A stretch of DNA of 64,000 bases. It comes from Marsupella aquatica (taxonomy: Eukaryota > Plantae > Marchantiophyta). This document shows, piece by piece, positions 2,679-58,675 of the stretch. Each line of letters begins with the position of its first letter. Within the stretch, counting starts at the first letter, position 1. Where the stretch lies: contig OZ316892.1 in the NCBI GenBank assembly GCA_973895155.1, positions 16,606,357-16,670,356 on the forward strand, read 5' to 3'. The notes under the pieces were generated by a model. It ran no database searches. It saw only the letters and a program-made list of their open reading frames with translations, and was not told where the DNA came from. Made by a program: the position numbers and the translations under genes.

Positions 2679-2855
2679 TGTCGTGACATATAGTATCGTA
2701 GCCATAGTGTATCGAAAACATACAAGTCACCGGCAAGGCATACGTGCAAGCTGCTAGCAACCAACATCCTGAGAAAAAAGTCCAATCACATTCACAAGTG
2801 CCGAGAAAAAGCAAATGAAGTGGTATGTACGTAGTGGAGGTGTAAACCTCTGTAT
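2679..2855 (-). repeat. Terminal repeat B (177 bp) of the outer copy
   Basis: Homologous to 5402-5578, 5937-6113 and 37259-37434. Adjacent to a C7 run at 2856-2862 (G7 PPT on the sense strand). Confidence 0.9.
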
Positions 2856-2894
2856 CCCCCCCAGACCACAGCCAAAAGGAGGGCTGAAGAAAAT

Positions 2895-5397
2895 TCAGGT
2901 AGCACGTGGAGCACAAGAAGGGCAAAACCATAACCCTTCTGGCACCTGGGTAAGTTCAAGCCGAAGGCAGAAAAGATGGTACCCTCCATTGCAATTGTCA
3001 CACAACAGCATCTAGTCAGCATCATCAATTTGCAAACACACTTTGCAAGGGTAGTCCACAGGTGGAATCCAGGTAGAAGTCACAATGGTGGGATCCAGGT
3101 TAGGCAGATGACAAGGGGCGCAATTCTTGGCATTGTCAGCAATTATGCGCCCATCTGCCCCTTGTAACTCTAGCACTCCAGACGGTCGAATAGCTTTAAC
3201 CCTGAGAATAGTACGACTGGTAGAGGTGTCCAGGGTGTCATTAGCTTGCCGCTGCAAGTACACAAAATCTCCCACATCAAACTTCCTGACCTTGGGCTGA
3301 AAACTGCCCCCTTGTGTGTGTGCATAACGCAATGTGTCCCTGTGTTGTGCAATGGCCAAATTCTCCATGGCCATGGGCATAACCCTCCTGAATAGGGCAG
3401 CCCTCTCAGAGATCACATCAGACCAAGTCACAGCTGAATCCAAGTCCACCACCTGAAGCATGTGAGCAGCAATAGCAGAAGGTGGAACTGGGTGACGACC
3501 AAACAACAAGAAGTAGGGAGAAAAGTTAGACAGTGATGCATGTCTAGACATCCTATACCCCATGGCAATGTAGGGTAAGGCCAGGTCCCAATCCTCCTTG
3601 TTTTTGGTGAGGCAGATCTTCCGAAGGCCCTTCTTGCATGTCTGAACCATGCGCTCTGCCAAGCCATCTGCCTGTGGGTGATCTCGTGATGTCCGGCGAT
3701 GATCAATGAGGGCCTGATCAAGCAGCTCCTGGAACTCTCCTCTAAACTCTGAGCCCTGGTCAGTGAGACATTCTGCACAAGCTCCAAAGCGGCTGAGAAC
3801 TTGTTGCAGGAATGCCTGGCTGGTGCTACGGGAGGTCTTATCCGGCAATGCCACAAGTTCTATCCACTTGGAGAAATGCTCTATCATGATCATGATGTAG
3901 AGATTACCCCGAGATGTGAGGGGTAATTCTCCAGCCAAATCACATGACCAACGATAAAACATGCCCTGAATAGGGAGTGGATGAAGTGTGGGTTGCCGAG
4001 TCGTGAAAGAAGTCCTTACCCTATCACACTGCTCACACCGGGCAATAACATCTCGAACCTGGCCATGCATGCCTCTCCAATGATAATGAGGGACCAAGAG
4101 GCTGTAAGTCCTCTTAACGCCAAAATGACCAAGCTCAGAATGTACCTTACGAATAAGGCCAACCCTCTCATGAATGGGTGGAACCACCACTTCCCTGTCT
4201 GGCAAGCAGCGCACGAGATGATCTCCCTTCCACAAGTAGCGCTTGGACCTTTGCTGAATTCGGTCTCTCTGGGCAGCAGTAACATGTGTGGGGTACTCCC
4301 CATGCTGCAGAAATCTCAGAGTGTCGCTATCCTCCCATATGTCCACCACAGGTTGGTCAACAACATAGCATGGCAGCAAAGCAAGATAGGTCAATGCATG
4401 AAATGTAGGCAGGATGGAAACCTGGTCAAAATCTTGCCGTGCATCTGAGGAATCATCAGAGGTAATCAAAGGGCTGTGGGACATAGTGTCAGCATTCTGA
4501 TGTGTCAAACCAGGCCTATGAATTACCTCAAAGTCATACTCCTGGAGGATGAGTGCCCGACGAGCAAGCTTGCCAGTAACCTTGTCGTTAGTCATCAACC
4601 ACTTCAAGGGCTGGTGGTCGGTGTAGAGAGTAAACCTGGTCCCATAGAGGTAGGGCCTGTAATGTATGACAGCCCACACAACAGCAAGGCATTCACCCTC
4701 ATAAGAAGAATAATGACTCTCTGCCTGATTGTTGCTCCTGGATGCATAGACAATGACGTACTCTTTACGTTCCTCATCATGCTGGCCCAAAATGGCACCA
4801 ATCCCAAGGGCACTCCAATCTATGTGTAGCACAAAGACCTTGTTGAAATCAGGTCTTCTCAGCACCGGGTATTTTGAGAGCTTCTCCTTCAAAGTGGCAA
4901 ATGCTGCCTCAGCATCTGTACTCCATGTCCAAGTCACATTCTTTTTCAACAAAGCATACAATGGGTGTGCAATGGTGCTGAAATCTTTGATGTAGATCCG
5001 GTAGTAATTGCACAACCCAATGAAACTCCTCAAAGTGTGAACATCAGTAGGAGTGGGCATTTCCAAGATGGATACCACCTTGGCCCAGTGAGCCATGGTT
5101 CCATTTGGAAGAATGCGGTGCCCAAGGTATACTACTGATCTGACAGCAAATTCACACTTCTTGGGGTGTATCTTTAGGTTCACCTTCTTAAGCCTCATGA
5201 ATAGCTCCTCAAGGTCAAGTAGATGCTGGTCAAATCCTTTGCTGTGGACCAACACATCATCAATGTAGCATTTTAGAAACTCAGCACCTTGAAGAACCTG
5301 GTCCATGACTCTTTGAAAGAATATGGGCGCATTCTTCAAGCCAAATGGCATCACCAACCACTCCCATAGTTGGTTACTACCATGGAAAGCTGTTTTC
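2895..5397 (-). pseudogene. Outer-copy pol 3' half: RT (YIDD)-RNaseH-integrase-PHD
   Basis: Motifs MPFGLKNAP, YIDDVLV, DWSALGIGAIL, HSELGH..CEQC and WSCDLAG/LTDQGSEF/GLAERMV. The PHD finger is broken by a CAG>TAG stop at 3012-3014. Confidence 0.9.
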
Positions 5398-5401
5398 TGG
5401 C

Positions 5402-6113
5402 TGTCGTGACATATAGTATCGTAGCCATAGTGTATCGAAAACATACAAGTCACCGGCAATGCATATGTGCAAGCTGCTAGCAACCAACATCCTGAGAAAA
5501 AAGTCCAATCACATTCACAAGTGCCAAGAAAAAGCAACTGAGATGGTATGTACGTAGTGGAGGTGTAAACCTCTGTATGGCGTGATAGAAACAAACGTGC
5601 TGAAATCGAATCGAAAACCGGTGAGATGCCAAGGTCGGCCGGGAGCATCTAACGAATCACTATGTGAATTCCGTGTACGGAACCAACGAGCAGCCTCTGA
5701 AAAACCCTGTCTCACAGCGATTCAAGAAGAACTAAAGAACGGCAAAGAAAAACATGCCCTAAGTAGGACCGGGTCCAGGCGTCACACTAACAAACCCCTT
5801 TTGCTTCAAGAATAGCCCAGACTCGCTACAAGAACATGACACTAACTCAAGTAGTACACTAGCCCTAACCATACCTAGCGGGCATGCGAGGGACATGCCG
5901 ATGTGCACAAGCGACACTGTCCCTCGGCATGACAGCTATCGTGACATATAGTATCGTAGCCATAGTGTATCGAAAACATACAAGTCACCGGCAATGCATA
6001 TGTGCAAGCTGCTAGCAACCAACATCCTGAGAAAAAAGTCCAATCACATTCACAAGTGCCAAGAAAAAGCAACTGAGATGGTATGTACGTAGTGGAGGTG
6101 TAAACCTCTGTAT
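5402..6113 (-). repeat. 3' repeat block B1-gc-A2-B2 of the inner copy
   Basis: B1 and B2 (177 bp each) are nearly identical. A2 (356 bp) differs from A1 at about 8 positions, all transitions by eye. Confidence 0.92.
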
Positions 6114-6120
6114 CCCCCCC
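6114..6120 (-). promoter_or_regulatory. Putative polypurine tract (G7) immediately upstream of repeat B
   Basis: C7 on the + strand abuts B1. The same C7 is present at 2856-2862 in the outer copy. Confidence 0.6.
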
Positions 6121-6152
6121 AGACCACAGTCAAAAGGAGGGCTGAAGAAAAT

Positions 6153-9100
6153 TCAGGTAGCACGTGGAGCACAGGAAGGGCAAAACCATAACCCTTCTGG
6201 CACCTGGGTAAGTTCAGGCCAAAGGCAGAAAAGATGGTACCCTCCATTGCAATTGTCACACAGCAGCATCTGGTCAGCATCATCAATTTGCAAACACACT
6301 TTGCAAGGGTAGTCCACAGGTGGAATCCAAGTAGAAGTCACAATGGTGAGATCTAGGTTAGGCAGATGACAAGGGGCGCAATTCTTGGCATTGTCAGCAA
6401 TTGTGCGCCCATTTGCCCCTTGTAACTCTAGCACTCCAGACGGTCGAATAGCTTTGACCCTGAGAATAGTGCGACTGGTAGAGGTGTCCAGGGTGTCATT
6501 AGCTTGCCGCTGCAAGTACACAAAATCTCCCACTTCAAACTTCCTGACCTTGGGCTGAAAACTGCCCCCTCGTGTGTGTGCATAACGCAATGTGTCCCTG
6601 TGTTGTGCAATGGCCAAATTCTCCATGGCCATGGGCATAACCCTCCTGAATAGGGCAGCCCTCTCAGAGATCACATCAGACCAAGTCACAGCTGAATCCA
6701 GGTCCACCACCTGAAGCATGTGAGAAGCAATAGCAGAAGGTGGAACTGGGTGACGACCAAACAACAAGAAGTAGGGAGAAAAGTTAGACAGTGATGCATG
6801 TCTAGACATCCTATACCCCATGGCAATGTAGGGTAAGGCCAGGTCCCAATCCTCCTTGTTTTTGGTGAGGCAGATCTTCCAAAGGCCCTTCTTGCATGTC
6901 TGAACCATGCGCTCTGCCAAGCCATCTGCCTGTGGGTGATCTCGTGATATCCGGCGATGATCAATGAGAGCCTGATCAAGCAGCTCCTGGAACTCCTCTC
7001 TGAACTCAGATCCCTGGTCAGTGAGACATTCTGCACAAGCTCCAAAGCGACTGAGAACTTGTTGTAGGAATTCCTGGCTGGTGCTACGGGAGGTCTTATC
7101 CGGTAATGCCACAAGTTCTATCCACTTGGAGAAATGCTCTATCATGATCATGATGTAGAGATTACCCCGAGACGTGAGGGGTAATTCTCCAGCCAAATCA
7201 CATGACCAACGATAAAACATGCCCTGAATAGGGAGTGGATGAAGTGTGGGTTGCCGAGATGTGAAAGAAGTCCTCACCCTATCACATTGTTCACACCGGG
7301 CAATAACATCTTGAACCTGGCCATGCATGCCTCTCCAATGATAATGAGGGACCAAGAGGCTGTAAGTCCTCTTAACGCCAAAATGACCAAGCTCAGAATG
7401 TACCTTACGGATAAGGCCAACCCTCTCATGAATGGGTGGAACCACCACTTCCCTGTCTGGCAAGCAGCGCACGAGATGATCTCGCTTCCACAAGTAACGC
7501 TTGGACCTTTGCTGAATTCGGTCTCTCTGGGTTGCAGTAACATGTATGGGGTACTCCCCATGCTGCAAAAATCTCAGAGTGTCGCTGTCCTCCCATATGT
7601 CCACCACAGGTTGGTCAACGATGTAGCATGGCAGCAAAGCAAGATAGGTAGATGTATGAAATGTAGGCAGGATGGAAACCTGGTCAAAATCCTGCCGTGC
7701 ATCTGAGGGATCATCAGAGGCAATCAAAGGGCTGCGGGACATAGTGTCAGCATTTTGATGTGTCACACCAGGCCTATGAATTACCTCAAAATCATACTCC
7801 TGAAGTATGAGTGCCCAACGAGCAAGCTTGCCAGTAAGCTTGTCGTTGGTCATCAACCACTTCAAGGGCTGGTGGTCGGTGTAGAGAACAAACCTGGTCC
7901 CATAGAGGTAGGGCCTGTAATGTATTACAGCCCACACAACAGCAAGGCATTCACCCTCATAAGAAGAATAATGACTCTCTGCCTGATTGTTGCTCCTGGA
8001 TGCATAGGCAATGACGTACTCTTTACCTTCCTCATCATGCTGGCCCAGAATGGCACCAATCCCAAGGGCACTCCAATCTGTGTGTAGCACAAAGACCTTG
8101 CTGAAATCAGGTCTTCTCAGCACCGGGTATTTTGAGAGCTTCTCCTTCAAAGTGGCAAATGCTGCCTCAGCATCTGTACTCCATGTCCAAGTCACATTCT
8201 TTTTCAACAAAGCATACAATGGGTGTGCAATGGTACTGAAATCTTTGATGTAGATCCAGTAGTAATTGCACAACCCAATAAAACTCCTCAAAGTGTGAAC
8301 ATCGGTAGGAGTGGGCATTTCCAAGATGGATACCACCTTGGCCCAGTGAGCCATGGTTCCATTTGGAAGAATGCGATGCCCAAGATATACTACTGATCTG
8401 ACAGCAAATTCACACTTCTTGGGGTGTATCTTTAGGTTCACCTTCTTAAGCCTCATGAATAGCTCCTCAAGGTCAAGTAGATGCTGGTCAAATCCTTTGC
8501 TGTGGACCAACACATCATCAATGTAGCATTTTAGAAACTCAGCACCTTGAAGAACCTGGTCCATGACTCTTTGAAAGAATATGGGCGCATTCTTCAAGCC
8601 AAATGGCATCACCAACCACTTCCATAGTTGGTTACTACCATGGAAAGCTGTTTTCTTGCGGTCTTTTGCAAGCAGCAAAATCTGGTTGAAGCCTTGCCTT
8701 AGATCCACAAGAGTGAAGATGTCTGAGTCTCCAATGCTGTCAAATAGCTCCTCTGGCCGCGGCATGGGGTACCTGTCCTGGGGTGTGACCAGGTTCAATG
8801 GCCTATAGTCCCCACACATGCGCTTCTCTGTCCACAATCCACTGGAATCCTTCTTTGCTGGCATCATTATAGCTGCCGCAAAATCTGATGTAGATGGCTG
8901 AATAAGACCAGCTTCATAAAGCTCTTGGCACCTCTCATCCACCAGCTGCCACTCATGCTTACTCAAATGGTGTCTCCGCCTGAAGATAGGTGTTTCATCA
9001 GCCAACTCAATGGAGAACTGCATAGTCTTGCACTTACCCAAGTCCTTCATAGAGAAAGCAAACACATTCTCATGCTTGAGGAGCAAATTCAGTAGCTGGT

Positions 9101-10160
9101 CCTTCTGTCTTTTACTCAGGTGGTTGCCCATGATAAATGTGTAGTTGGCAACACTAGGAATAGGACCTGATGTACTCGTGCTTGAAGAGCCAGAAGTGCC
9201 AGCCTCTCCACTGTCCAAGCTGCTAGCATGCTGCTGATAAGGTGATGAGGCCTCTCTAAGGCCTGTTGTACCTGCTGATCTGAAGTGGTCCACACCATGA
9301 AACTCAGAAATAATGTCAGCCGCATTACAAGGGACCTCCTCCCCCCCAACACTTGGACTGAAGTGGTGAGTGTTGGACAGAGGTAAGTGCACCTGGTCTG
9401 GATGCCATGCAGCAGCACTGTGGAGTGGTAGGGCGGGAGCCCCTAATGCTGGAGGAATGTACATCTGAAAAAGGATGCAAGTGACCAGAAGCCAAGTGAG
9501 AGCATTGAGATCCATTACCCTGCCAAGTAAAGCATTCCTGGCCAGCTTGGTGATTTTGGTGTGACCTGTAGTACCGGGTTGGAAGCCCATAGCCCGTTCT
9601 CTCTCCTCAGGACTAGGTTCATCCCATGTACTGGTAGAATGTCGATAAACCAGACCAGGACCATCACCCTGAAAAGCATGTGCACCTGGAAAGGACACAA
9701 ATGTAGGCCAAGCAGCACGAGGTTGTCCAATGGTATTGGCTGGATACCAAGGTGCTGGCTCTTGCCGTGTAACTGGTTGGCAAGAACTGTCAGGATCCAA
9801 AATCTGGTCCACTGTAAGGTTAGTGTCCCTGGATGTGTGGTGAAGAGCCATCTCCAGCAAGGAAGGTGGTGCAAGGTTAGTCCAAAAGTTACAAAGACGA
9901 TGTGCATAAGAACCACAGTGCACTGCATCAATGGGTGGTCCCAAGTAGTGCTGGACCACACTGAAATCCTCTTTGACCTGTGGACGCTGGTCAAACTGAG
10001 ATGGAGTATTCTCAATGATATAACCAACAGCAGGATAAAGGGATTGAGCCCAGGTGAGAATCTGAACCAATGCTGTGAAAAGGCCAGAACGAGAATCATG
10101 CAGTCCAGCACCGTGACCAGCAGCTGAAAACCCTTGGCATTCCCAACCAGCTATGATCAA
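6153..10160 (-). CDS. Open pol segment: DNMT3-like C-terminal part, RT, RNaseH, integrase, PHD finger (1335 aa)
   Basis: IIAGWECQGF, YIIENT, AHRLCNFWTN, RMCGDYRPLN, YIDDVLV, RNaseH and integrase D,D35E motifs. C-terminal CKVC..CDNC..HLFC..CPSC is a C4HC3 PHD finger. Confidence 0.9.
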   Translation of the reverse strand: MIIAGWECQGFSAAGHGAGLHDSRSGLFTALVQILTWAQSLYPAVGYIIENTPSQFDQRPQVKEDFSVVQHYLGPPIDAVHCGSYAHRLCNFWTNLAPPSLLEMALHHTSRDTNLTVDQILDPDSSCQPVTRQEPAPWYPANTIGQPRAAWPTFVSFPGAHAFQGDGPGLVYRHSTSTWDEPSPEERERAMGFQPGTTGHTKITKLARNALLGRVMDLNALTWLLVTCILFQMYIPPALGAPALPLHSAAAWHPDQVHLPLSNTHHFSPSVGGEEVPCNAADIISEFHGVDHFRSAGTTGLREASSPYQQHASSLDSGEAGTSGSSSTSTSGPIPSVANYTFIMGNHLSKRQKDQLLNLLLKHENVFAFSMKDLGKCKTMQFSIELADETPIFRRRHHLSKHEWQLVDERCQELYEAGLIQPSTSDFAAAIMMPAKKDSSGLWTEKRMCGDYRPLNLVTPQDRYPMPRPEELFDSIGDSDIFTLVDLRQGFNQILLLAKDRKKTAFHGSNQLWKWLVMPFGLKNAPIFFQRVMDQVLQGAEFLKCYIDDVLVHSKGFDQHLLDLEELFMRLKKVNLKIHPKKCEFAVRSVVYLGHRILPNGTMAHWAKVVSILEMPTPTDVHTLRSFIGLCNYYWIYIKDFSTIAHPLYALLKKNVTWTWSTDAEAAFATLKEKLSKYPVLRRPDFSKVFVLHTDWSALGIGAILGQHDEEGKEYVIAYASRSNNQAESHYSSYEGECLAVVWAVIHYRPYLYGTRFVLYTDHQPLKWLMTNDKLTGKLARWALILQEYDFEVIHRPGVTHQNADTMSRSPLIASDDPSDARQDFDQVSILPTFHTSTYLALLPCYIVDQPVVDIWEDSDTLRFLQHGEYPIHVTATQRDRIQQRSKRYLWKRDHLVRCLPDREVVVPPIHERVGLIRKVHSELGHFGVKRTYSLLVPHYHWRGMHGQVQDVIARCEQCDRVRTSFTSRQPTLHPLPIQGMFYRWSCDLAGELPLTSRGNLYIMIMIEHFSKWIELVALPDKTSRSTSQEFLQQVLSRFGACAECLTDQGSEFREEFQELLDQALIDHRRISRDHPQADGLAERMVQTCKKGLWKICLTKNKEDWDLALPYIAMGYRMSRHASLSNFSPYFLLFGRHPVPPSAIASHMLQVVDLDSAVTWSDVISERAALFRRVMPMAMENLAIAQHRDTLRYAHTRGGSFQPKVRKFEVGDFVYLQRQANDTLDTSTSRTILRVKAIRPSGVLELQGANGRTIADNAKNCAPCHLPNLDLTIVTSTWIPPVDYPCKVCLQIDDADQMLLCDNCNGGYHLFCLWPELTQVPEGLWFCPSCAPRAT

Positions 10161-10180
10161 ATCAAGGGAGCCAAGAAGGG

Positions 10181-13100
10181 TTAAGTGCCGGTGCCGGACA
10201 AGCTGGATATCTGGAGGAAAGAAAGAAAATGCAGACTTCCATGCACTATGTGGAAACTGCTGGGGAAATCGCTCTGAAAATTCAGCAGACGGGATTCAGC
10301 CACTTGCCTTGCACTTGGATCAATATCCACATAGATGTACTGCTTCACCACCATGCCAGACTTTAGGAGAGCTTCCAGGCCTGTAGAAATGCCACCAAAA
10401 AGCTCAAGCAATGTAAGGTCATCTGAAGGAGGAGTCCAGGTAACTGGTGCACTCAAGATTGGGGCTATTGGTTGTCCATTATGCTGCCCAAGGTCCTCAA
10501 ATTTGTGCAATGCAGCCACCAAAGGTCCATGGGCTGCTTGGAGCCGTTGTACCACCTCTGGTTGATGATCCACGTTGCTGGAAAGTGCTGCCACACGTGC
10601 AGCAGCATGTGCAGTAGCCACCTCATCCTCATCCTCCTCAATCCAATCCTGCAATGGGTGGTTGACATAGGTAGCTGTGTGCACTGCTTTCAACACACAG
10701 TGGTGAGCCATAGGGGTATGGGCACCATGCAAATCAAGTGGAATGTATCCCAAGTGTGAGCCATCCGTATGCCAATCAACTCTGTAGTATGCATGCTCAT
10801 GCCAGTTGTCAATGGTAAAACCTGGTGGGAACAAAGTCTCCTGGCCAATGAGCACATCATACGTAGTGGCATTGGTAACCAAACATCTGACTGGGAAATG
10901 CAGTTCCTGATCTGTACCTCCATTAAAAGTGAGAGTGAGTAAAGTAGAACTCTCACCCAGCACATCCTCCACAGTGCCACTAGCAGTCGGAATGTGCCAC
11001 CTGGACTGCTGTAAATGATCAATCAGCACTCCCATCTTCTTGGCAAACTGAATGCCCAAGATTACTGGTTGAGCGCCTGTGTCTAGCATGACCACCTGAG
11101 GAGTGTGACCCTCCAACTTGACTGCTGAATTCCTGTTGTCAACAATGGCAATGGTGGTGGAAACTAAAGTCCTGTCACTAGGCACCACTTTTGGCAAATG
11201 ATGAGGTACCTTGTGAAGGGAGTTAGTGTCCATGGTCTTCCCACTCAACAGCATAGCCAGGAAAGATGGAGCAGCATGACCAGAATCAAGTGTAGATCTG
11301 ATCACATAATCTGCAGCAATACTGTCATCTCTACCACTGGAAATCGGTACTGGGATAGCCAAACCAGTGGAAGCATGCAATGGAGAAGAAGAAGGTCCAG
11401 TATTAACATGAGATTGGACCTCCAAAACCGGTGTCACAAGGGCTGATGAAGAATGCAGTGAGCCCTCTAGCGCTCTGATGATAGCTCTAGCATCCAGCTG
11501 TAAATCATGGCAACTGAAAAGTGGAGTGGTAAGAATCCTTTGTGCCATATCGGAGGTGAAATGCTCAAGCAACTCAGGAAAAACAACTCCCTGTGAAATG
11601 TTAGCAGCACCTGGTGGTGGAATGGATGTAGCTGCAGCTCCCTCCCCCCTCGCCAACAAGGTTTAGGGTTTAGGGGACCAGCAGCAAGACCATCAGCTTG
11701 TACAATGTGGCGTGTGGGAGCAATACGGGAGGCAGCACTGGCCTGTTGGTAAGCAAAATAGGAAGGGCAGAATGAATCTGAAAATTCTGCTGTAAGGCCA
11801 GGCTGTGTAGCAGAGGACAGCACACACTCACCCATATGAGCATCAAATGGCAAGCCATAGAAAGAGCGGGGTAGGGGTGCTGAACTGTCAGTGGTGCCTG
11901 GGCCAGGGATGGGTTGCACGTGACCAGCCGGTTGAGAAGGACCAGCAGAGGCAGTGGACTTGCCTTTGATGTTGGCAAGTTGGGCACGTAATGACTCAAC
12001 CTCATGAGTCAGAGACTGGAGTTGAGTGGCCTGTGCGTTGTGAGCCTCCTTCTGAGCGGGTTGCTTCTGTTGCTGCTTGGGCAATTTGTTAGCACTGGAT
12101 GCTTTGCCACTGGAAGGAGGAGCAACTGATGCAGTAGGAGCCCTCCTAGCTGGTGGGGGAGTGGAAATAGGAGCAGGATGAGTGGCCTGCTGTCGTAGCT
12201 GCTTCCTCTCGGGGAATTTGGCAAAACAAACTACCTCCAAGTGGCCCACTTTCTCGCAAAAATCACAAGACAGGTCCTCAGCAACAATATCACATTCATT
12301 AGCCTTGTGATTAGGGTTACCACAGTAGTTGCAAGATGGTAGCATGAAAGCAGCATTTGCTGGCTTGGTCTTGGAACTATACTGTGGCACACGGGAAGGA
12401 GTGGCCAGTGTAGGGGCAGCAGCCTGGTACCTGGATCGCGGTGGACGCGCAATACTGGCCTCATAATATGCACGGGCCAACTCAAGTTTCTCAGCAGTGT
12501 CATAGACATTGAGCAAGGTGTAGCTGTCTCCAAACTCTGAGAATACTTGCTGCAACACTTGTGAATGGAGAGTTGGGGTGCCCTCCAACGCACGAAGATA
12601 GCGATGAGCAGCTTCCAGGTCAGTGATGCTCTGGGTGTCTTCCTTCAGCTTGAGAAGCCGGCGATACAACATCTTCAATGTTTCATCGCGCTGCCTCACA
12701 AATGTGGCCAACTGCATGATTTTGTCAGCACTCTTGATTGGGAATTCCAATTCAAGAACCTGGAAAAACTCAGCCACTGGATCAACAAAGGCAGGGGAAT
12801 CAATGGTGGGAGAAATGCCTGATGTAGCCTATGCCAAGACAGTGGGAGTAACTGGTGCAGTGGTGGGAACTGGAGTAGGAGGGGAAGTGGCAGGAGCAGC
12901 AGCATGGGCTGCAATGGCATTCTGTAATGCCAGTTGTGAGGCAGCCGCAATTGCAGTGGCATAGGCAGGGTTAGGCAATTGTGTGACAACAAGCAGCCGT
13001 TGAGAATGCTGCTCATACACATCCAAAGCCTCGTGGTGCACATACCTGGCTAGCTGCTTAAATGCAAAAGCATTTGTGAAATTGCTGCCATACTTCAACT

Positions 13101-13473
13101 CCAATTCGTAAACGATAGTGTAGAAAGTGGATTTGAACTCACGTAAAGAGACAGTGCCTGGCCGCTCGCTGAAGCGCTCAATGCGGCCAGATGAGTGGCT
13201 GGCATCCATGCTGTATGTTGGTGAAGCTGGAACAATCACCGATGCAGAAGGAGAAAAAGGCAAAGAAGTGATAGCAGGCTTTGGGGTAGAGGTGAAGCGA
13301 CCGCCAAATGTAGCAGAAGGGTTGCGTGGTGTGGGTGTTGCTACTGTCTGCTGACGTCGTCGAAATTGCCGAGACTCCAATGAAATTGGCACCAATGGTC
13401 GTGGATCACTCCGTAAGTGGTACCGGGGTGTTGGTGGCGATGAGCTGCTACCTCCTGGCTCGTCGGCTGACAT
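10181..13473 (-). pseudogene. Inner-copy gag-protease-DNMT N-terminus (frameshifted)
   Basis: Two zinc knuckles (CNYCGNPNHKANEC, CDFCEKVGHLEVVC), protease VMLDTGAQ and DNMT motif I LELFGGISTG. Frameshifts near 10282 and 11665; in-frame TAG at 12829-12831. Confidence 0.85.
11661..11675 (+). repeat. Interstitial telomeric patch (TTTAGGG)x2
   Basis: GTTTAGGGTTTAGGG replaces ~73 bp that are present in the outer copy at 18271-18343. Confidence 0.8.
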
Positions 13474-14906
13474 GCTGCATGCTCACCCAGGGTGCCAATG
13501 GGAAAGAAATTGACAAGAAAAAGGAGTGGCAGCCCCAAGGCTAGGAAATAAACGGTACAAGGCAGCAATGTGTAGAATGTGTAAGCGCTGAGAAACTGTC
13601 AAAGTCTATGCAGATGACATGTGGCGGCAGCAAAGAAATCCGGGAAGAATGGGCCCTTGAAAACATGAATAGGGGCCCCCCTTAAGTCTATACATTGGGC
13701 CCCTTTAAGTGTATACGTCGGGCCCCTATGTGGACCCGAAAAAGGAAGGACCGGCCGGCACGGTGCCCTATGCAAGTAGTCGAGAACAAAGCAAGAGCGA
13801 ACGGAAAGAAATGGGCCCTGCAACACGTGAAAGGGGCCCCTTAAGTGTATACACATCGGCCCAATGTGGACCCGGGAATTGGCAGCAGGTCGATCATCGT
13901 GCAGCGAAAAAGTGAGACAAGCTGAAAAAGGTGAAAAGAAAACGGGAAGAGTGAGGCGAAGAAAAAGAAATGAGCCCTGTGCATAGGGCTTCGCACCCCC
14001 TTCCCTCCTCCTTATGAGCTCCCGAAGCCTCCTTGGGGCTTCGTGCCCTGGCAGGCCTAAGTACTCCCGTGTGAGGGAGTTCGAATTGAACTCCCCTCCC
14101 CTCCTTTAATGCAGCTTAGGGCCTTGTGCCCTCTCCTGGCACTCTCGCTCCCCCTCCTTGCCTCCTTTCATTGCAACATAGGGCCTCGTGCCCACTCCTT
14201 GCACTCTCGCTCCCCTCCTCCTGGCTTTAATTGCTTATTAGGGCCTCGTGCCCTCTCTCCTTGCGCTTGTCTCCCCCTGCTTCAATGCTGCTTCGTGTGC
14301 TGCAGGAGGACTCCCGAGAAGGGAGTCGTATGTACTCCCCCTCCCCCTTTAATGCAGCATAGGGCCTCATGCCCACTCGCTGCTGCCTGCCTCGGCTCTG
14401 TCTCCCCCCTTGCGCTTGTGCTCGCTAGTCGACTCCCTTCCTCCTTAATTAAATGCTGGCAAAAACGAGAGCGCACGATGCCCTATGCGCAGCCTGCCTT
14501 ATGCGATCGGGAGGGAGGCAAAGGGGAGACTATGGCCGAAAACGGCAAAAAAGAGAAAAACGGGGCGCGCGGTCGGAAGGGAAGTGGTCGCGCGGCAGCC
14601 GTGGCCGGGAAAATGCCCATAAAAACTAACAAACAAGGGTCTTAAAAACGCGAGCGAGGCCGCAGCGGCCTATGCAGTCGGCAGCAAGTCGCCGATGTAG
14701 GTCACAAAGAAGGTTGCGGCCGGAAAAGGAAAACCTGGGCCCCGACGGGAGTGTTATGTGTATACACTTAAGTATACACATAACTCCACACTAAACCCAT
14801 AGTTTTGAAGCCTCGTTCCAATGTCTATCAAGGAAATTGCAACGGCTTAACCAAAAATTGTCGAAACTGCCACGAGAAATCTTCTTCCCGTCACCGCTAA
14901 CTCGAG

Positions 14907-15079
14907 AGTTCTTCTTGAATAAAAGGCGTGATAGAAACAAATGTGCTGAAATCGAATCGAAAACCGGCGAGATGCCAAGATCGGCCGGGAGCATCTAACG
15001 AATCACTATGTGAATTCCGTGTACGGAACCGACGAGCAGCCTCTGAAAAACCCTGTCTCACAGCGATTCAAGAAGAACT
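14907..15079 (-). promoter_or_regulatory. Putative self-priming site: 14-bp inverted repeat pairing the sequence just downstream of A1 with a site inside A1
   Basis: AGTTCTTCTTGAAT (14907-14920) is the reverse complement of ATTCAAGAAGAACT (15066-15079). No tRNA-type TGG PBS is present at this position. Confidence 0.55.
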
Positions 15080-15280
15080 GAAGAACGGCAAAGAAAAACA
15101 TGCCCTAAGTAGGACCGGGTCCAGGCGTCACACTAACAAACCCCTTTTGCTTCAAGAACAGCCCAGACTCACTACAAGAACATGACACTAACTCAAGTAG
15201 TACACTAGCCCTAACCATACCTAGCGGGCATGCGAGGGACATGCCGATGTGCACAAGCGGCACTGTCCCTCGGCATGACA
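14925..15280 (-). repeat. 5' terminal repeat A1 (356 bp) of the inner copy
   Basis: Homologous to 5579-5934, 21210-21560, 24698-25051 and 37441-37792. Confidence 0.92.
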
Positions 15281-15284
15281 TGGC

Positions 15285-18200
15285 GGTCCTTTGCAAGCAG
15301 CAAAATCTGGTTAAAGCCTTGCCTTAGATCCACAAGAGTGAAGATGTTTGAGTCTCCAATGCTGTCAAATAACTCCTCTGGCCGTGGCATGGGGTACCTG
15401 TCCTGGGGTGAGACCAGGTTCAGTGGCCTGTAGTCCCCACACATGCGCTTCTCTGTCCACAATCCACTGGAATCCTTCTTTGCTGGCATCACTGTAGCTG
15501 CTGCAAAATCTGATGTAGATGGCTGAATAAGCCCAGCTTCATATAACTCTTGGCATCTCTCATCCACCAGCTACCACTCATGCTTACTCAAACGGTGTCT
15601 CCGCCTGAAGATAGGTGTTTCATCAGCCAACTCAATGGAGAACTGCATAGTCTTGCACTTACCCAAGTCCTTCATAGAGAAAGCAAACACGTTCTCATGC
15701 TTGAGGAGAAAATTCAGCAGCTGGTCCTTCTGTCTTTTACTCAGGTGGTTGCCCATGATGAATGTGTAGTTGGCAACACTGGGAATAGGACGTGATGTAA
15801 TCGTGCTTGAAGAACCAGAAGTGCTAGCCTCTTCACTGTCCAAGCTGCTAGCATGCTGCTGATAAGGTGATGAGGCCTCTCCAAGGCCTGCTATATGTGT
15901 TGCTCGGGTCTGATCCACACCATGAAACTCAGAAATAATATCAGCCACATTACAAGGGACCTCTTCCCCCCCAACACTTGGACTGAAGCGGTGAGTGTTG
16001 AAGAGAGGTAAGTGCACTTGGTCGAGATGCCATGTAACAGCACCATGGAGTGGCAGGGCTGGAACTCCTGATGCTGGATGAATGTACATCTGAAAAAGGA
16101 TGCAAGTGACCAGAAGCCAAGTGAGAGCATGGAGATCCATTACCCTGCCAAGTAAAGCATTCCTGGCCAGCCTGGTGATGTGGGTGTGGGCTGTAGTACC
16201 GGATTGGAAGCCCATAGCCCGTTCTCTCTCCTCAGGACTAGGTTCATCCCATGTACCGGTAGAATGTCAGTAAACCAGGCCAGGACCATCACCCTGAAAA
16301 GCATGTGCACCTGGAAAGGACACAAATGTAGGCCAAGCAGCATGGGGCTGTCTAATGGTATTGGCTGGATACCAAGGTGCTGGCTCTTGCCGTGTAACTG
16401 GTTGGCAAGAACTGTCAGGATCCAAAATCTGGTCCACTGTAAGGTTAGTGTCCCTGGATGTGTGGTGAAGAGCTAACTCCAGCAAGGAAGGTGGTGCAGG
16501 GTTAGTCCAAAAGTTACGAAGACGATGTGCATAAGAACCATAGTGCACTACATCAATGAGAAGGGGTGGTCCCAAGTAGTGCTGGACCACACTAAAGTCC
16601 TCTTTGACCTGTGGACGCTGGTCAAACTGAGATGGAGTATTCTCAATGATATAACCAACAGCAGGATAAAGGGATTGAGCCCAGGTGAGAATCTGAACCA
16701 ATGTTGTGAAAAGGCCAGAACGAGAATCATGCAGTCCAGCACCGTGACCAGCAACTAAAAACCCTTGGCATTCCCAACCAGCTATGATCAAATCAAGGGA
16801 GCCAAGAAGGGTTAAGTGCCGGTGCTGGACAAGCTGGATATCTGGAGGAAAGAAAGAAAATGCAGACTTCCATGCACTGTGTGGAAACTGCTGGGGAAAT
16901 CGCTCTGAAAATTCCAGCAGATGGGATTCAGCCACTTGCCTTGCACCTGGATCAATGTCCACATAGATGTACTGCTTCACCACCATGCCAGACTGTAGGA
17001 GAGTTTCCATGCCTGTAGAAATACCACCAAAAAGCTCAAGCAATGTAAGGCCATCCGGAGGAGGAGTCCATGTAACTGGTGCACTCAAGATTGGGGCTAT
17101 TGGTTGTCCATTATGCTGCCCAAGGTCCTCAAATTTGCGCAATGCAGCCACCAAAGGTCCATGGGCTACTTGGAGCCTTTGTACCACCTCTGGTTGATGA
17201 TCCACGCTGATGGAAAGTGCTGCTATATGTGCAACAACATGTGCAGCAGCCACCTCATCATCATCCTCCTCAATCCAATCCTGCAATGGGTGGTTGACAT
17301 AGGTAGCTGTGTGCACTGCTTTCAACACACAGTGGTGAGCCATAGGTGTATGGGCACCATGCAAATCAAGTGGAATGTAGCCCAAGTGTGAGCCATCCGT
17401 ATGCCAATCAACTCTGTAGTATGCGTGCTCATGCCAGTTGTCAATGGTAAAACCTGGTGGGAACAAAGCCTCCTGGCCAATGAGCACATCATACGTAGTG
17501 GCATTGGTAACCAAACATCTGACTGGGAAATGCAATTCCTGATCTGTACCTCCATTAAAAGTGAGAGTGAGTAAAGTAGAACTCTCACCCAGCACATCCT
17601 CCACAGTGCCACTAGCAGTCCGAATGTGCCACCTGGATTGCTGTAAATGATCAGTCAGCAGTCCCATCTTCTTGGCAAACTGAATGCCCAATATCACTGG
17701 TTGAGCGCCTGTGTCTAGCATGACCACCTGAGGAGTGTGACCCTCCAACTTGACCGCTGAATTCCTGTTGTCAACAATGGCAATGGTGGTGGAAACTAAA
17801 GTCCTGTCACTAGGCACCACTTTTGGCAAATGATAAGGTACCTTGTGAAGGGAGTTAGTGGCCACGGTCTTCCCACTCAACAACATAGCCAGGAAAGATG
17901 GAGCAGCATGACCAGAATCAAGTGTAGCTCTGGTCACACAATCAGCAGCAATAGGTACTAGGGCAGCCAAACCAGTGGAAACATGTAAAGGAGAAGAAGA
18001 AGGTCCAATATGTACATGAGATTGGACCTCCAAAACCGGTGTCACAGGGGCTGATGAAGAATGCAGTGAACCCTCTAGCGCTCTGATGACAGCTCTAGCA
18101 TCCAGCTGTAAATCATGGCAACTGAAAAGTGGAGTTGTAAGAATCCTTTGTGCCATACCGGAGGTGAAATGCTCAAGCAGCTCAGGAGAAACAACTCCCT

Positions 18201-19911
18201 GTGAAATGTCAGCAGCACCTGGTGGTGGAATGGATGTGGCTGCAGCTCCCTCCCCCCTCGCCAACAAGGTGCGCTCTTCAGCAAGTGTGAGGGGCTGAAA
18301 AGATTGGGGCATGACAGCCCGAGCTCCCCTGGCTCTAGTCATAGGACTAGCAGCAAGACCATCAACCTGTACAATGCGGCGTGTGGGAGCAATACGGGAG
18401 GCAGCACTGGCCTGCTGGTAAGCAAAATAGGAAGGGCAGAATGAATCTGAAAATTCTGCTGTAAGGCCAGGCTGTGGAGCAGAGGACAGCACACACTCAC
18501 CCATATGAGCATCAAATGGCAAGCCATAGAAAGAGTGGGGTAGAGATGCTGAACTGTCAGTGGTGCCTGGGCCAGAGATGGGTTGCACGTGACCAGCCGG
18601 TTGAGAAGGACCAGCAGAGGCAGGTGACTTGCCTTTGATGTTGGCAAGTTGGGGCACGTAGGGACTCAACCTCATGAGTCAGAGACTGGAGTTGAGTTGC
18701 CTGGGCATTGTGAGCCTCCTTCGGAGCTGGGTTTAGGGTTTAGGGTTTAGGGTTTAGGGTTCAGGGTTCAGGTTTAGGGTAACATGAAAGCATGAAAGCA
18801 ACATGTGCTGGTTTGGTCTTGGAAGCATACTGTGGCACACGGGAAGGGGTGGCCATTGTAGGGGCAGCAGCCTGGTACCTGGATCGCGGTGGATGCGCAA
18901 TATTGGCCTCATAATGTGCATGGGCCAACTCAAGTTTCTCAGCAATGTCATAGACATTGAGCAAGGTGTAGCTGTCTCCAAACTCTGAGAATACTTGCTC
19001 CAACACTTGCGAATGGAGAGCTGGTGTGCCCTCCAATGCGCGAAGATAGCGATGAGCAGCTTCCAGGTCAGTGATGCTCTGGGTGTCCTCCTTCAGCTTG
19101 AGAAGTCGGCGATACATCATCTTCAATGTTTCATCGCGCTGCCTCACAAAGGTGGCCAAGTGCATAATTTTGTTAGCACTCTTGATTGGGAATTCCAATT
19201 CAAGAACCTGGAAAAACTCAGCCACTGGATCAGCAAAGGCAGGGGAATCAATGGTGGGAGAAATGCCTGATGTAGCCTATGCCAAGATAGTGGCAGTAAC
19301 TGGTGCAGTGGTGGGAACTGGAGTAGGAGGGGAAGTGGTAGGAGCAGCAGTATGGGCTGCAATGGCATTCTGTAATGCCAGTTGTGAGGCAGCCACAATT
19401 GCAGTGGCATAGGCAGGGTTAGGCAATTGTGTGATAGCAAGCAGCCGTTGAGAGTGCTACTCATACACATCCAAAGCCTCGTGGTGCACATACCTGGCTA
19501 GCTGCTTAAATGCAAAATCATTTGTGAAATTGCTGCCATACTTCAACTCCAATTTGTAAACGATAGTGTAGAAAGTGGATTTGAACTCACGCAAAGAAAC
19601 AGTGCCTGGCCGCCCACTGAAGCGTTCAATGCGGCCAGATGAGTGGTTGGCGTCCATGCTGTATGTCGGTGAAGCAGGAACAACCACGGATGCAGAAGGG
19701 GTAAATGGTAATGAAGTGATAGCAGGCTTTGGAGTAGTGGTGAAGCAACCGCCAAATTGAGCAGAAGGATTGCGTGGTGTGGGTGCTGCTGCTATCTGTG
19801 GACGTCGTCGAAATTGCCGAGACTCCAATGAAATTTGCACCAATGGTTGTGGATCACTCCGTAAATGGTACCTGGGTGTCGGTGGCGATGTGCTGCTACC
19901 TCTGCTGACAT
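15285..19911 (-). pseudogene. Outer-copy gag-protease-DNMT3-like-RT N-terminus
   Basis: ORF 16267-18675 carries LDTGA, LELFGGISTG, YIYVDID, LDLIIAGWECQGF, YIIENT and AHRLRNFWTN. 15571-16215 carries RNALLGRVMDL. Several stops and frameshifts; the Gag knuckles are deleted. Confidence 0.88.
18729..18780 (+). repeat. Interstitial telomeric patch, about 7 TTTAGGG/TTCAGGG units
   Basis: Replaces ~275 bp, including both CCHC knuckles, present in the inner copy at ~12063-12337. Confidence 0.9.
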
Positions 19912-21209
19912 GCTGTGGTGTCCTTGCCGGATCGACGGTCTGATGTGTATGCCGGGCCCTCAACCTTACGTAGATGCCATGTGGCGGCAGCAAAGAAATT
20001 GGGAAAATATGGGAAAATATGGGCCCTATTCAGCGGTAGTCGAATATGTGAACCGGGCCCCTCTTAAGTGTATACACATTCGGGCCCCATTGTGGACCCG
20101 GAAACTGCAGCCGGACCGGTCGAGTGTGTATACACACTCGTAGCACACGGCCCTATGCAGCGCTAGTCGGACGGCTATGGAAAAGTCAAGGAGTCACTAT
20201 GGCCGACGAGGGAAAGAAACGGGAGGGCACGATGCCCTATGTACATACTGCGGAGCACAAAAGGTGTAAGGAGGAAAAGGCAAGACGCAGCGTGGCAAGG
20301 GCGAAGTAAAGAGATGGCGAAAAGAAAAGCATCGGGCCCCCATAGAGGGGCTACAAACTCCCCCCTCCTCTCGTGCAATGTAATTTGGGCTCGTGCCCTG
20401 GCAGGAGCACTCCCGAGAAGGGAGTCGACTTAACTCCCCTCCCCCTTTAATGCTTCATAGGGCCTCGTGCCCTCTCCTCTCGCAGGCTCGCTTCAACTCC
20501 TCCCCCTCGTTAATGCTGAATGGGGCCTTGTGCCTGGCAGAAGTGTGAGTCCCAAGAGGAGGGAGTCGAATGTACTCCCTCTCCTCCTTTTAATGCAGCA
20601 TAGGGCCTTGTGCCCTCTCCCTACGCTCCTGCCTTCACTCCCCCTCCCCCTTCTTTAATGCTGCCTAGGGCCTCGTGCCCTCTCCAGGCGCTCCTTCCCC
20701 TTCCTCTGGCTGCTTAGAAATGGGCGAGGCAAGGGCACGATGCCCTATGCACAGCCTGCACACCAAAGCGGAAGGAGGTCGAGAGAAAGAGAAGAAAACG
20801 GGGCCCCCAAAGGCGAAAACGTAAAGAGGAGGTCGGGGTGGAAGCGTGTCGAAACGAGGGCACACGGCCCTATGCAGGCATCTCGCTGCGGCCGAGGCAA
20901 AACTCGCCGGCAGCTGTGGCCGGGAATGCAAAAACAACCCCAAAAGCAGTCGAGGCAGCAAGCGGCAGTAACAGTAAGAAGGAGCAAAGGGGTCGCGGAT
21001 GCAACCAGAAAATGAACTCTGGACCTCCTCGGGAGCACTGATATGTGTATACACTTAAGTATACACATAACAACATAAACCCATAACTTTCAACTCGTCG
21101 CTCCGATGTTCGTCAAAGAAATTGCAATAGCTTCACCAGAAATTGTCGAAATCGTCACGAGCAATCTTCTTCCCCTCACTGCCAACTCGGCAGTTCTTCT
21201 TGAATAAAA

Positions 21210-21560
21210 GGCGTAAGAGAAACAATCGTACTGAAATCGAATCAAAACCGGCAGGATGCCAAGATCAGCCGAGAGCATCTAACGAATCACTGTGTGAATC
21301 CCGTGTACGGAACCGACGAGCACTGTCTGAGCTCTGTCAACAACGATTCAAGAAGAATTGCCAACCCACAAAGAAAGACATGCCCTAAGCAAGCAAAGCC
21401 CTGACGTCACACTAACAAGCACATTTGCTTCAAGAACGGCCCAGACTTGCTACAAGAACATGTCGCTAACTCAGCTAGTACACTAGCCCTAACTACATAC
21501 CTAGCGGGCAGGCGAGGGACATGCCGATGTGCATAAGACGCACTGTCCCTCGGCATGACA
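21210..21560 (-). repeat. 5' terminal repeat A of the outer copy
   Basis: Homologous to A1, ends CATGACA, and has no B sequence next to it. Confidence 0.9.
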
Positions 21561-21994
21561 CCACTTCCTTCTCGCCATGCGCCCCGGCTGCCCTTATGGA
21601 GATGCCAGGTGGCGCCCACCGGGGCTGCCCCTTATGGACTTCTTCACTCCCTTTCCTCAATGCCCCTTTACTCCAAAAAACTTTCAACCTCTCAAAAGAA
21701 CTCATTCTCTTCTTTTGGCCCTTGTTGTGGTTATACCCATTTAACCCCAAAAAGAAAAGTTAACCTCTTGGACTTATAGGGGGAACTTGACAATGGTTCA
21801 AGCGAAATGGCAAGGCCACCTATTTGCCCCCCCCCCTAGGTTGCCGTGGCCGTTTAGAACAATTATGAAAATAAAATAAAATAAAATAAAGTCCTCCTGG
21901 CAGCACCAACTTGAAAGGATGGAATTAACTCAAAAAAAATTTAAAATGGCTTATTTATAGTGGCTATTAACAATGCACAGGCCTCCGCGACCAG

Positions 21995-23212
21995 TTATGT
22001 GTGACTTCCCGTGACGGGGTACCCGTCACATAGCTCCTCTCTTAATTGCGAAGCGCCCCCGCGAGCACCATACTCCTCCTTCGGGTAATACTTCTTTAGA
22101 TGTTCTTGATTGATCCGGGTGTTGAGTAGTTGCCCCTCCAACGTCCTGAGTTGAACCGACCCATTGGAGTAGACCGTATCGACAACGTAGGGCCCCATCC
22201 AACGTGTATGTAACTTCTCGGGGAAATGCATGAAACAACTGTCGTAGAGGAGCACCAAATCCCCCCCTTCAATGGACACACGGCGGAGTCGGGAATTGTA
22301 GTGCAACTTTTGTTTGCCTTGTTGCTGCTCCATGCAAGTCAAAGCCTCCTCTCTTACCTCCGTAAGGTGCTCCAATTGTTGGATCCATGCAGCTACACTA
22401 CTTTCTTCCCCTTCCCTTTCCCGTGTCAAGATTCGAATGGTGGGCACCTCGAATTCCACTGGCACCAAAGAATGTTGACCAAACACAAGGAAATAGGGGC
22501 TGTGGCCAGTGGTGGTCTTATGAGCCAAGTTGTAAGCATACATAGCGGCCAACAACTTGAGATCCTAATCCGTCTTGTGAGCTGACACCGTCTTGTTGAG
22601 AATCTTGCCCATGATCCCGTTCGCTCTCTCAGTGAGCCCGTTGGCTCGAGGATGGTACGGAGTGGTCTTCCTATGTGAGATCAAGTAGTTCTCCGTCAAA
22701 TGTTCAATTGTATGATTGAGAAAGTGAGTACCCCTGTCACTCACAAGCTCCAAGGGTGGACCAAACCGTGTAAAAATCTGCTCGTACAAAAAACGTGCCG
22801 TGGTGTTGACATCATCCTTTGCAGTAGCTCTGGCCTCCACCCACTTGGTGGCATAGTCCGTTGCCAGAATGATGTAACGCTTCCTCCCTCTTCTGGTGAT
22901 GGGAGTGAAAGGGCCAATGAAATCAACTCCCCACTTCTCAAAGGGTGCAAGGGGGAGTATGGGCACCAACGGGTGTCGGGAGGAAGGTCCAGGTTTGCCT
23001 TGCCGTTGGCAGGGATCACATCTCTGAATGTATCTATGTACGTCCCGAAAAAGAGTTGGCCACCAATAGCCAGCATCTAGTATCTTTCTTGCTGTGGTCT
23101 CCCTTGCAAAGTGGCCACCAGCTTCCTCCTCATGTAGTGCCGCCATGACTGTACGTATCTGCGCTTCCTCCAAACAACGACAAAGACGGTGGTGCAATCC
23201 CTGATGTACCAA
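21995..23212 (-). pseudogene. Integrase remnant of a different, Athila/Tat-like Gypsy (target of the outer copy)
   Basis: GGHFARETTARKILDAGYWWPTLFRD, CDPCQ, FEKWGVDFIGP, SDRGTHF, NGLTER and KLHTRWMGPY (GPY/F). Stop at 22565. Confidence 0.85.
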
Positions 23213-23214
23213 AA

Positions 23215-37258: not shown

Positions 37259-37792
37259 TGTCGTGACATATAGTATCGTAGCCATAGTGTATCAAAAACA
37301 TACAAGTCACCGGCAAGGCATATGTGCAAGCTGCTAGCAACCAACATGCATAGAAAAAGTCCCATCACATTTACAAGTGCCAAGAAAAAGCACATGAGGT
37401 GGTATGTACGTAGTGGAGGTGTAAGCCTCTGTATATAAAAGGCGTAAGAGAAACAAGCGTACTGACTCGAATAAAAAACCGGCGGGATGCCAAGATCGGC
37501 CGGGAGCATCTAACGAATCACTATGTGAATCCCGTGTACGGAACCGACGAGCACTGTCTAAGCTCTGTCAACAGCGATTCAAGAAGAACTGAAAATCGAC
37601 AAAAAGAAACACGCCCTAAGTAAGTCAAGTCAAGGCGTCACACTAACAAGCACATTTTGCTTCAAGAACGGCCCAGACTTGCTACAAGAACATCACACTA
37701 ACTCAAGTAGTACACTAGTCCTAACTACATACTTAGCGGACATGCGAGGGACATGTCGATGTGCAGAAGAGGCACTGTCCCTCGGCATGACA
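37259..37792 (-). mobile_element. Lone A-B unit (534 bp) of the DNMT-Gypsy family
   Basis: TGTCGTGAC..GGCATGACA with 4-bp TSD ACCA (37255-37258, 37793-37796). B part 37259-37434, A part 37435-37792. Confidence 0.92.
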
Positions 37793-58367: not shown

Positions 58368-58675
58368 GCTGGCTGCAGAATAGAACAATGCAAATGAGCA
58401 AGCTATGGAAGTTGACGAGAGTGCGAGCTTGGCAAGCTGAAATGCCCGATAACCTGAGTGCAAAACAATGAGGAATTGGGGTGACAAGGTCGAGGTATTT
58501 GCTGGGGTGAAGGTCGAGGTTGGAGAGCCTCGCAAGGTTGCACATCCCGTTGCACATGTCTGGCCTGCATGAAGTAACATGAAACTGAATGAAGCGTGCA
58601 AGGAAGTTGTACAAATTGTACAACGCGTCATATTTCAAAATAAGCATGGAGTGTATGTTAAAACTCACCCAGTTG

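Follow-up and report, generated by a model that had tools for sequence, protein, structure and literature searches.

At what point of its copied DNA does a retrotransposon integrate when the sequences to be inserted do not lie at the ends of that copy? This question is raised by a Gypsy-type element with split direct repeats in the liverwort Marsupella aquatica, found in 64,000 nucleotides (nt) of contig OZ316892.1 (assembly GCA_973895155.1, forward strand, 16,606,357 to 16,670,356), a stretch that we call the window. Retrotransposons with long terminal repeats (LTRs) and retroviruses are taken to integrate through the termini of linear cDNA, with circles carrying two LTRs (2-LTR circles) as a side route. 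An original prediction, made from the letters of the window, held that reverse transcription of this element would yield LTRs with the attachment sites inside them. Our analysis leads to a related view: integrase cleavage of an internal palindrome of abutted ends is the most probable working of the element, and a joint between its two repeat units, A and B, likely derives from cDNA termini that were end-joined.

Results

Self-comparison of the window, in which the sense of the element is the minus strand, resolved two repeat units on that strand, A, of about 356 base pairs (bp) and with TGTCATG at its start, and B, of 177 bp and with ACGACA at its end. The inner copy has TG..CA ends and reads A1-open reading frames (ORFs)-polypurine tract (PPT)-B1-GC-A2/B2, which we call the full form; the outer copy, interrupted by the inner one, is A-ORFs-B (short form), and a further site is a solo A/B (Table 1). 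For all three, the predicted order, the TG..CA ends and the 4-bp target site duplications (TSDs) were borne out: TGGC, CCAC and ACCA are exact at 4 bp, none reaches 5 bp, and a homologous empty site within the inner copy has the 4-mer once. A1 and A2 differ at 8 of 356 sites, against 54 to 58 of 349 to the outer A, and B1 and B2 at 1 of 177, against 6 to 7 of 177 to the outer B. A2 and B2 therefore belong to the inner copy, as their shared bases had suggested, and the divergence of the two pairs is indistinguishable (8/356 versus 1/177; Fisher P 0.28).

The abutted ends of B1 and A2 form a near-palindromic junction around the predicted GC spacer. Its letters had been given as ATGACA-GC-TGTCGT, and here the prediction needs correction, as the plus strand of the window reads ATGACA-GC-TATCGT and the inner B1 ends in TA. 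Position 5938 reads G (the CA state of B1) at 98-100% of depth in all four public runs, so the TA end is a change private to the inner copy. Two of these runs have contigs that bridge B-GC-A and extend over 31 letters to either side of the junction.

What repeat would reverse transcription make from such an element? The G7 tract expected ahead of B is present, and the primer-like site after A appears to be a self-priming site: a stretch beginning 202 nt into A is complementary to the sequence that follows A, over 14 nt in the inner copy compared with at most 9 nt in 200 shuffles. Tf1 is described as priming with its own first 11 bases (PMC7175516). An 11-nt primer would place the cDNA end of the inner copy at 14918, 7 nt past the end of its A2, and this predicted end is the commonest A/B joint in the public contigs of two of the four runs. 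In 10 of 12 copies the complementarity between primer and primer-binding site (PBS) exceeds that of every one of 200 shuffles, and its letters differ among four families (the second family and the distant loci L081 and L083, described below, have the pair in other letters), and 8 of the 12 copies have a TATA 29-34 nt upstream of the primer. Because the PPT sets the start of B and a Tf1-type pair of self-primer and PBS sets the end of A, standard LTR logic gives B-GC-A as the repeat made by reverse transcription, which supports the prediction that the attachment sites lie within it. A1 would then hold the promoter-proximal half of U3, R and U5.

The encoded domains are, in order, gag-like, protease, cytosine methyltransferase, reverse transcriptase (RT), RNase H, H2C2/rve integrase and PHD finger. 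The integrase triad is D1033-D1093-E1128, and the best solved relative is Ty3 Gag-Pol (top PDB match, E 8e-89). As the original prediction held, this is a DDE integrase and not a tyrosine recombinase: H2C2 and D,D(34)E are present, no tyrosine recombinase Pfam match was found in nine frames of the inner copy (shorter frames lay outside the scan), and none of the 120 listed homologs has a recombinase domain. The C terminus of the integrase gave no chromodomain match and carries a PHD finger instead. The D-to-E spacing is 34 in all 89 proteins that fitted the pattern (33 of 122 proteins did not fit it) and 35 in the unrelated L088; 35 is the usual spacing of such integrases. The shorter spacing may be related to the 2-nt junction substrate. 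Among the matches listed, the homologs with a name belong to green algae and to the liverwort Calypogeia.

The methyltransferase gave 17 PDB matches, all to DNMT3A or DNMT3C and weak (best E 4e-4), and a Pfam DNA_methylase match; in the outer copy the protease-methyltransferase region is uninterrupted in one frame (18678-16267). Its Dnmt3-like catalytic motif (10181-10295 and 16267-17100, minus strand) reads ECQ in place of PCQ; ECQ occurs in 33 and PCQ in 9 of 60 homolog matches. With gag interrupted by a stop and the methyltransferase by a break of frame, the inner copy is probably dead.

With Ty3/Gypsy elements the element shares the order protease-RT-RNase H-integrase with a Ty3-like RT, the H2C2 and DDE integrase, and PBS, PPT, TG..CA ends and a short TSD. 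It does not have two complete identical LTRs around the integrated copy, each 5' end seen being A followed by PBS with no B, nor do its attachment sites coincide with the boundaries at PPT and PBS: B opens with ATAC behind the PPT, no CA closes A ahead of the PBS, and TG and CA meet at the GC junction. The element is Gypsy by its enzyme, yet two structural features that define the group are absent.

From a metagenome scan for relatives the best 80 of at least 596 were kept, and removal of 12 same-site duplicates left 68 loci of a second family, 9 of which were set by hand. The A and B of the window had no blastn match in the 80 loci, that is, the LTRs of the two families do not align. Of the 68 loci, 29 end in B-xx-A-B (xx being the spacer) and 30 in B only; one more is cut after A, and the other 8 carry no information on their end. 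In 30 of 30 cases the spacer has a length of 2 nt (GC 10, AC 8, GT 6, AT 4, AA 1, TC 1), and 28 of the 30 are GC or its deamination products AC, GT and AT. In two of eight same-site pairs one contig has GC and the other AC, so most of the spacer variation is decay after insertion; we infer that it proceeded by deamination of methylated CAG/CTG. Among 16 copies with both ends, the 4-bp TSD is exact in 8 and has one mismatch in 6, and a solo A/B with exact TSD occurs in L049. When the copies were tabulated, conventional AB..AB copies formed no majority, the B-GC-A-B end was not confined to the window, and the spacer length was fixed rather than random.

One copy of this family, L056/L058, has a rearranged 5' end (2900-3500 in L056), an inverted A joined to a partial forward A. 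It was left out of the count of copies with both ends and counted as B-xx-A-B, though its B2 stops after about 14 nt. We read the 5' end as that of a rearranged or auto-integrated copy.

Seven contigs from prokaryote assemblies (L081-L087), taken as misplaced eukaryote DNA, encode more distant relatives. Four of them, from three families, have PPT-B-ACA-GC-TGTCAC after a G-run PPT: L081 and L082 (one family, 55% integrase identity), L083 (49%) and L084 (47%). The end is complete in L082 (PPT-B-GC-A/B), and in L083 and L084, with B of about 55-60 bp, the junctions are perfect palindromes of 16 bp and 20 bp, respectively. In L083-L087 the reading frame continues past the PHD finger. We conclude that the feature is genuine and that at least five families have kept it. 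In an integrase tree of 50 rows, built from sequences gathered in this analysis (no REXdb or GyDB reference elements), junction-bearing loci occur in a 27-row branch with the window and Calypogeia (Shimodaira-Hasegawa-like approximate likelihood-ratio test (SH-aLRT) 99) and also in a branch of 15 rows, shared with Haematococcus and Chlamydomonas eustigma (SH-aLRT 85). Their presence in both branches suggests that the junction is an old trait, and that ACA-GC-TGT has been retained in an LTR that otherwise turns over speaks most strongly for this motif as the site of the enzyme.

Further searches added little. No relative was found in viral contigs with the window integrase as the query; an alignment as the query gave one distant element with D-x35-E and seven PHD-only matches, and a Pleodorina protein had no match in genome contigs. 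Junction-pattern matches were rejected as new relatives: the nine in genome contigs were L083 and L084 again and seven chance matches without Pol, and three viral matches, likewise without Pol, were chance matches as well.

While the B-GC-A junction is constant, the A/B joint is not. The joint of the inner copy has no extra letters and that of the solo A/B has 6 extra nt of A; public contigs of the window family have joints with 7 or 5 extra nt and two joints with truncated A. The 29 joints of the second family fall into 11 classes centred on the PBS and PPT boundaries: +3 nt (13 joints), +1 with 2-nt microhomology (5), +4 (3) and eight singletons, which include a large deletion and a trimmed B. 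Joint class did not cluster on the tree (16 changes versus 15.45 in shuffled data) in a test of low power, and an inherited control marker did (15 versus 19.75 changes, P 0.018). The A/B joint thus varies in the way that end-joined cDNA termini would, and we read the A2/B2 joint at 5579/5578 as such joined termini.

Random single cuts of a 2-LTR circle, which has two identical junctions, would yield a mirror form, A/B-GC-A-ORFs-B, as often as the full form. Among the copies with both ends visible, window included, 9 are full, 9 short and none is mirror (two-sided P 0.004); the public-run contigs of the window family, too short to tell mirror forms, were excluded from the mirror count. Consistently, none of 16 script-read 5' ends has B upstream. 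The absence of the mirror form means that cutting favours the left junction and that the symmetric circle-cut model fails, and with it the part of the original prediction in which one cut at either of two equal junctions gave the inner form. A free circle is not required, because a left-junction cut of a linear molecule, with its termini joined once strand transfer has taken place, gives the same sequence. The short forms may come from 1-LTR circles, paired cuts or later recombination; their terminal branches on the tree have a median of 0.084, compared with 0.065 for full copies, which is no significant difference (P 0.13).

Table 1. Coordinates of the element copies and their parts in the 64,000-nt window
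Feature	Position	Strand	Evidence or remark
A1, left end of inner copy, begins TGTCATG	14925..15280	-	repeat comparison
Self-primer site in A1, 14 nt complementary to PBS; putative transcription start	15066..15079	-	at most 9 nt in 200 shuffles
PBS directly after A1	14907..14920	-	
gag-like frame, one internal stop in inner copy	11467..13482	-	weak CCHC zinc knuckle (zf-CCHC E 0.014, below cut-off)
Aspartic protease and start of cytosine methyltransferase domain	10181..11662	-	frame break to next ORF in inner copy
pol: rest of Dnmt3-like methyltransferase, RT, RNase H, integrase (H2C2, D-x34-E), PHD finger	6153..10295	-	
G7 PPT directly before B1	6114..6120	-	
B1, starts ATACAG at PPT boundary, ends ACGATA (family state ACGACA)	5937..6113	-	sequence reading, public contigs
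GC spacer between abutted B and A ends, centre of near-palindromic junction	5935..5936		predicted integrase cut site
A2	5579..5934	-	repeat comparison; 3' end 7 nt shorter than commonest family joint
B2, right end of inner copy, ends ACGACA	5402..5578	-	repeat comparison
TSD of inner copy, TGGC	5398..5401 and 15281-15284	+	exact
Outer copy, short form A (21560-21210)-ORFs-PPT-B (2855-2679), TG..CA ends	2679..21560	-	interrupted by inner copy
TSD of outer copy, CCAC	2675-2678 and 21561-21564		exact
Solo A/B, TSD ACCA/ACCA, TG..CA ends	37259..37792	-	joint holds 6 nt more of A than that of inner copy
Third family member: A (25051-24698), PBS, untranslated region (UTR), integrase fragment	21565..25051	-	outer copy inserted in it; its B outside window

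Three family members are thus nested in the window, the third hosting the outer copy. In short segments the integrase fragment of this third member shares 29-52% identity with the inner copy, and a 552-codon coiled-coil frame with one stop (546-2674, minus strand) lies on the far side of the outer copy; the third member may be a derivative that is non-autonomous or has an extra ORF. Degenerate 60-65 bp repeats occur in the 5' UTR of each of the three (14033-14408, 20384-20715 and 23837-24176), and this UTR varies fast, as public contigs cover it far less deeply than the ORFs. Elsewhere in the window are a tandem array of about 7.5 copies of an 84-bp unit (33927-34568), a PIF/Harbinger-like pair (56781-60019) with a Plant_tran/DDE_Tnp_4 ORF (60019-58676, minus strand) and a NAM-associated ORF (56781-57473, plus strand), and an intronless-looking ORF of 542 amino acids for a cytochrome b5 fatty-acid desaturase (61435-63063, minus strand).

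Discussion

How might such an element move? From the positions of the primer/PBS pair and the TATA, the RNA would start about 200 nt into A1, run through B1-GC and end in A2. Self-primed reverse transcription, following standard LTR logic with the PPT and PBS where they are, would turn it into linear B-GC-A-ORFs-B-GC-A. The integrase would then make a cut with a 2-nt stagger after CA in CA-GC-TG, producing two CA-3' ends with 2-nt 5' overhangs, which would be inserted with a 4-bp duplication; for this step the TG..CA ends, the lack of GC at the inserted ends and the 4-bp TSDs are observed. Single-cut products always come from the left junction, which is likewise an observed pattern. Host repair would join the cDNA termini either before integration, as a 2-LTR circle, or after it. 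The full form alone has two copies of R and could seed a new cycle; A-ORFs-B and A/B are predicted dead ends. We tentatively propose, at slightly less than an even chance, that the left bias comes from timing: the left LTR would need about 0.5 kb of minus-strand synthesis and the right one about 9 kb of plus-strand synthesis, and the left would become double-stranded earlier.

Several points weigh against this mechanism. It is derived from genome sequence. The mirror form is absent, for which timing is a putative account; about half of the copies are of the short form, which is predicted to be sterile. In old second-family copies B2 is nearest to its own B1 in just 8 of 25 cases (mean distance 0.093 to its own and 0.126 to others) and A2 to its own A1 in 5 of 8, and 2 of the 16 second-family copies with both ends have no TSD (L014 and L020). 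Neither the window's three copies nor L083 have a TATA upstream of the primer, and L084 has no primer/PBS pair of at least 10 nt. L087 shows no junction in the 1.9 kb past its PHD match, and L085 and L086 end before the junction region. Finally, the tree test of the joints has low power, since the tree is star-like and many joint classes are singletons.

Some of the same observations can be arranged differently. If a closed 2-LTR circle were the obligate substrate and either junction were cut, double cuts and 1-LTR circles would give the short forms directly; the A/B joint is indeed made up like the junction of such a circle, and the terminal branches given above place short forms among the youngest copies. 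We consider an obligate circle unlikely in view of 9 full copies and no mirror copy with both ends visible, and of 16 of 16 5' ends without B upstream. Replication as in PAT or Ngaro, with the whole of A1..B2 transcribed and copied, A/B inherited and one B-GC-A junction remade when the ends close, would account for the absent mirror form, the repeat order (as in PAT, Ngaro and VIPER; PMC4157794, PMC6681497) and the dominance of one joint class (13 of 29). It is nevertheless improbable: the RNA start falls inside A, judging from the PPT ahead of B1 and the self-primer/PBS pair that brackets the 3' part of A, the joints are heterogeneous and unclustered on the tree, and with no GC at the inserted ends a whole-unit copy would have no template for the GC there. 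A tyrosine recombinase supplied in trans by another element and acting at the palindrome would suit a layout typical of such elements, but we regard it as very improbable given the variable 4-bp TSDs, the TG..CA ends without GC, the conserved DDE triad and the absence of a recombinase domain from the scanned frames and the 120 listed homologs.

Chance insertion of a solo LTR next to the element, or an assembly error, deserves mention because the second-family loci are metagenome repeat assemblies and L014, L020 and L056 look chimeric. It is ruled out by recurrence, with 29 independent sites, five families, a fixed 2-nt spacer and the public contigs that bridge B-GC-A, and we give it next to no weight. 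A different proposal concerns the short forms only and is compatible with cleavage at the internal junction: only the full form would be inserted, and A-ORFs-B and A/B would arise later by B1xB2 and A1xA2 recombination, much as solo LTRs do. Both products would retain the TSD, as observed, and the short copies are scattered on the tree (21 changes versus 19.95 shuffled) with a trend to be older. On the other side, B is merely about 177 bp long and yet half of the copies are short, and short copies hold two of the three shortest terminal branches. We find the balance roughly even for this origin of the short forms.

The original prediction had assigned the order A1..B1A2B2 to tyrosine-recombinase elements. 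The order is indeed shared with PAT and Ngaro; its restriction to them does not hold, as it has been printed for a Gypsy element, too. The legend of Fig. 4c in de Mendoza et al. 2018 (PMC5890265) gives KnitGypsy-Dnmt3 of Klebsormidium nitens DIRS-type repeats with Gypsy domains, and the DIRS order in that paper is A-coding-B-A-B. Like the window element, KnitGypsy-Dnmt3 combines a Gypsy Pol that includes a Dnmt3-like domain with a DIRS-like repeat order, and, compared by description only, it probably belongs to the same clade. The accessible text of the paper says nothing of its junction sequence or spacer, of a TSD, of how it primes, of short forms or of a mechanism, and PHD is absent from the main text. 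In our literature search the name KnitGypsy occurred in this paper only.

PAT, TOC, Kangaroo, Ngaro and VIPER have split direct repeats in the order A1-ORFs-B1-A2-B2 (PMC4157794, PMC6681497), and SIRE, the free A2-B2 derivative of VIPER, resembles the solo A/B. As described there, these elements integrate by tyrosine recombinase, whereas the window element has a DDE integrase, TG..CA ends and 4-bp TSDs. Closer in chemistry are the retroviruses. The integrase of human immunodeficiency virus type 1 (HIV-1) is reported to cut the 2-LTR palindrome after CA on both strands, for which the DDE triad is needed (PMC1905944), and such circles, known also from foamy virus, can feed integration (PMC4372172); the likeness lies in a palindrome of abutted ends at which a DDE integrase cuts each strand after CA and whose product can integrate. 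In HIV-1, according to these sources, the palindrome consists of joined cDNA termini, has four central bases and serves a side route, whereas here it is RNA-templated, lies inside the LTR, has two central bases and would be the sole route. In the minicircles of IS3, IS30, IS21 and IS256, too, a DDE enzyme attacks the target from abutted ends in continuous DNA (PMC3299598), but these are described as DNA transposons whose junction is made by transposase via a figure-of-eight and not by reverse transcription. Priming by the RNA's own 5' end, here predicted from complementarity in 10 of 12 copies, is described for Tf1/sushi and Tcn1 (PMC7175516, PMC6317226); these and Chlamyvir are reported with two complete LTRs and mostly a chromodomain, in contrast to the PHD finger at the end of the window element's integrase.

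REXdb is described as built from predicted LTR pairs (TG..CA, TSD), with no mention of PHD in the accessible text (PMC6317226). The accessible parts of two further reports contain nothing on an internal-junction layout or mechanism (10.1101/2022.05.23.493040) and no repeat layout (10.64898/2026.05.21.726589), respectively. In the accessible literature, with Repbase, theses and most subscription journals lying outside the search, we found no account of a DDE retrotransposon that has its attachment junction internally. The repeat layout is known from one 2018 legend and each chemical step has precedent, while the combination and the left-junction bias appear new.

In summary, we think it rather likely that in a clade of PHD/Dnmt3 Gypsy elements, ranging from chlorophyte algae to bryophytes, attachment sites have been uncoupled from cDNA termini: a D,D(34)E integrase would obligately cut an RNA-templated palindrome inside the LTR, prefer its left copy and leave the termini to host end joining, which would add a third integration route to those by terminal processing and by tyrosine recombination. 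What the genomes preserve points to a natural lineage in which a junction of abutted ends inside the LTR is always used. The old question of the circle junction can thereby be tested directly with a single enzyme and a single 16-bp substrate, and retroviral integrases become linked to the circle-junction chemistry of IS3 type. The lineage also suggests a way in which ordinary reverse transcription of an LTR element gives rise to split direct repeats, and the same logic could lie behind the A-B-A-B layout of PAT/Ngaro elements. If this is true, LTR-pair finders are largely blind to the clade: catalogues built on LTR pairs with TG..CA and TSD, such as REXdb, would miss such elements or set their bounds wrongly, and their 'solo LTRs' would be A/B joints and not LTRs.

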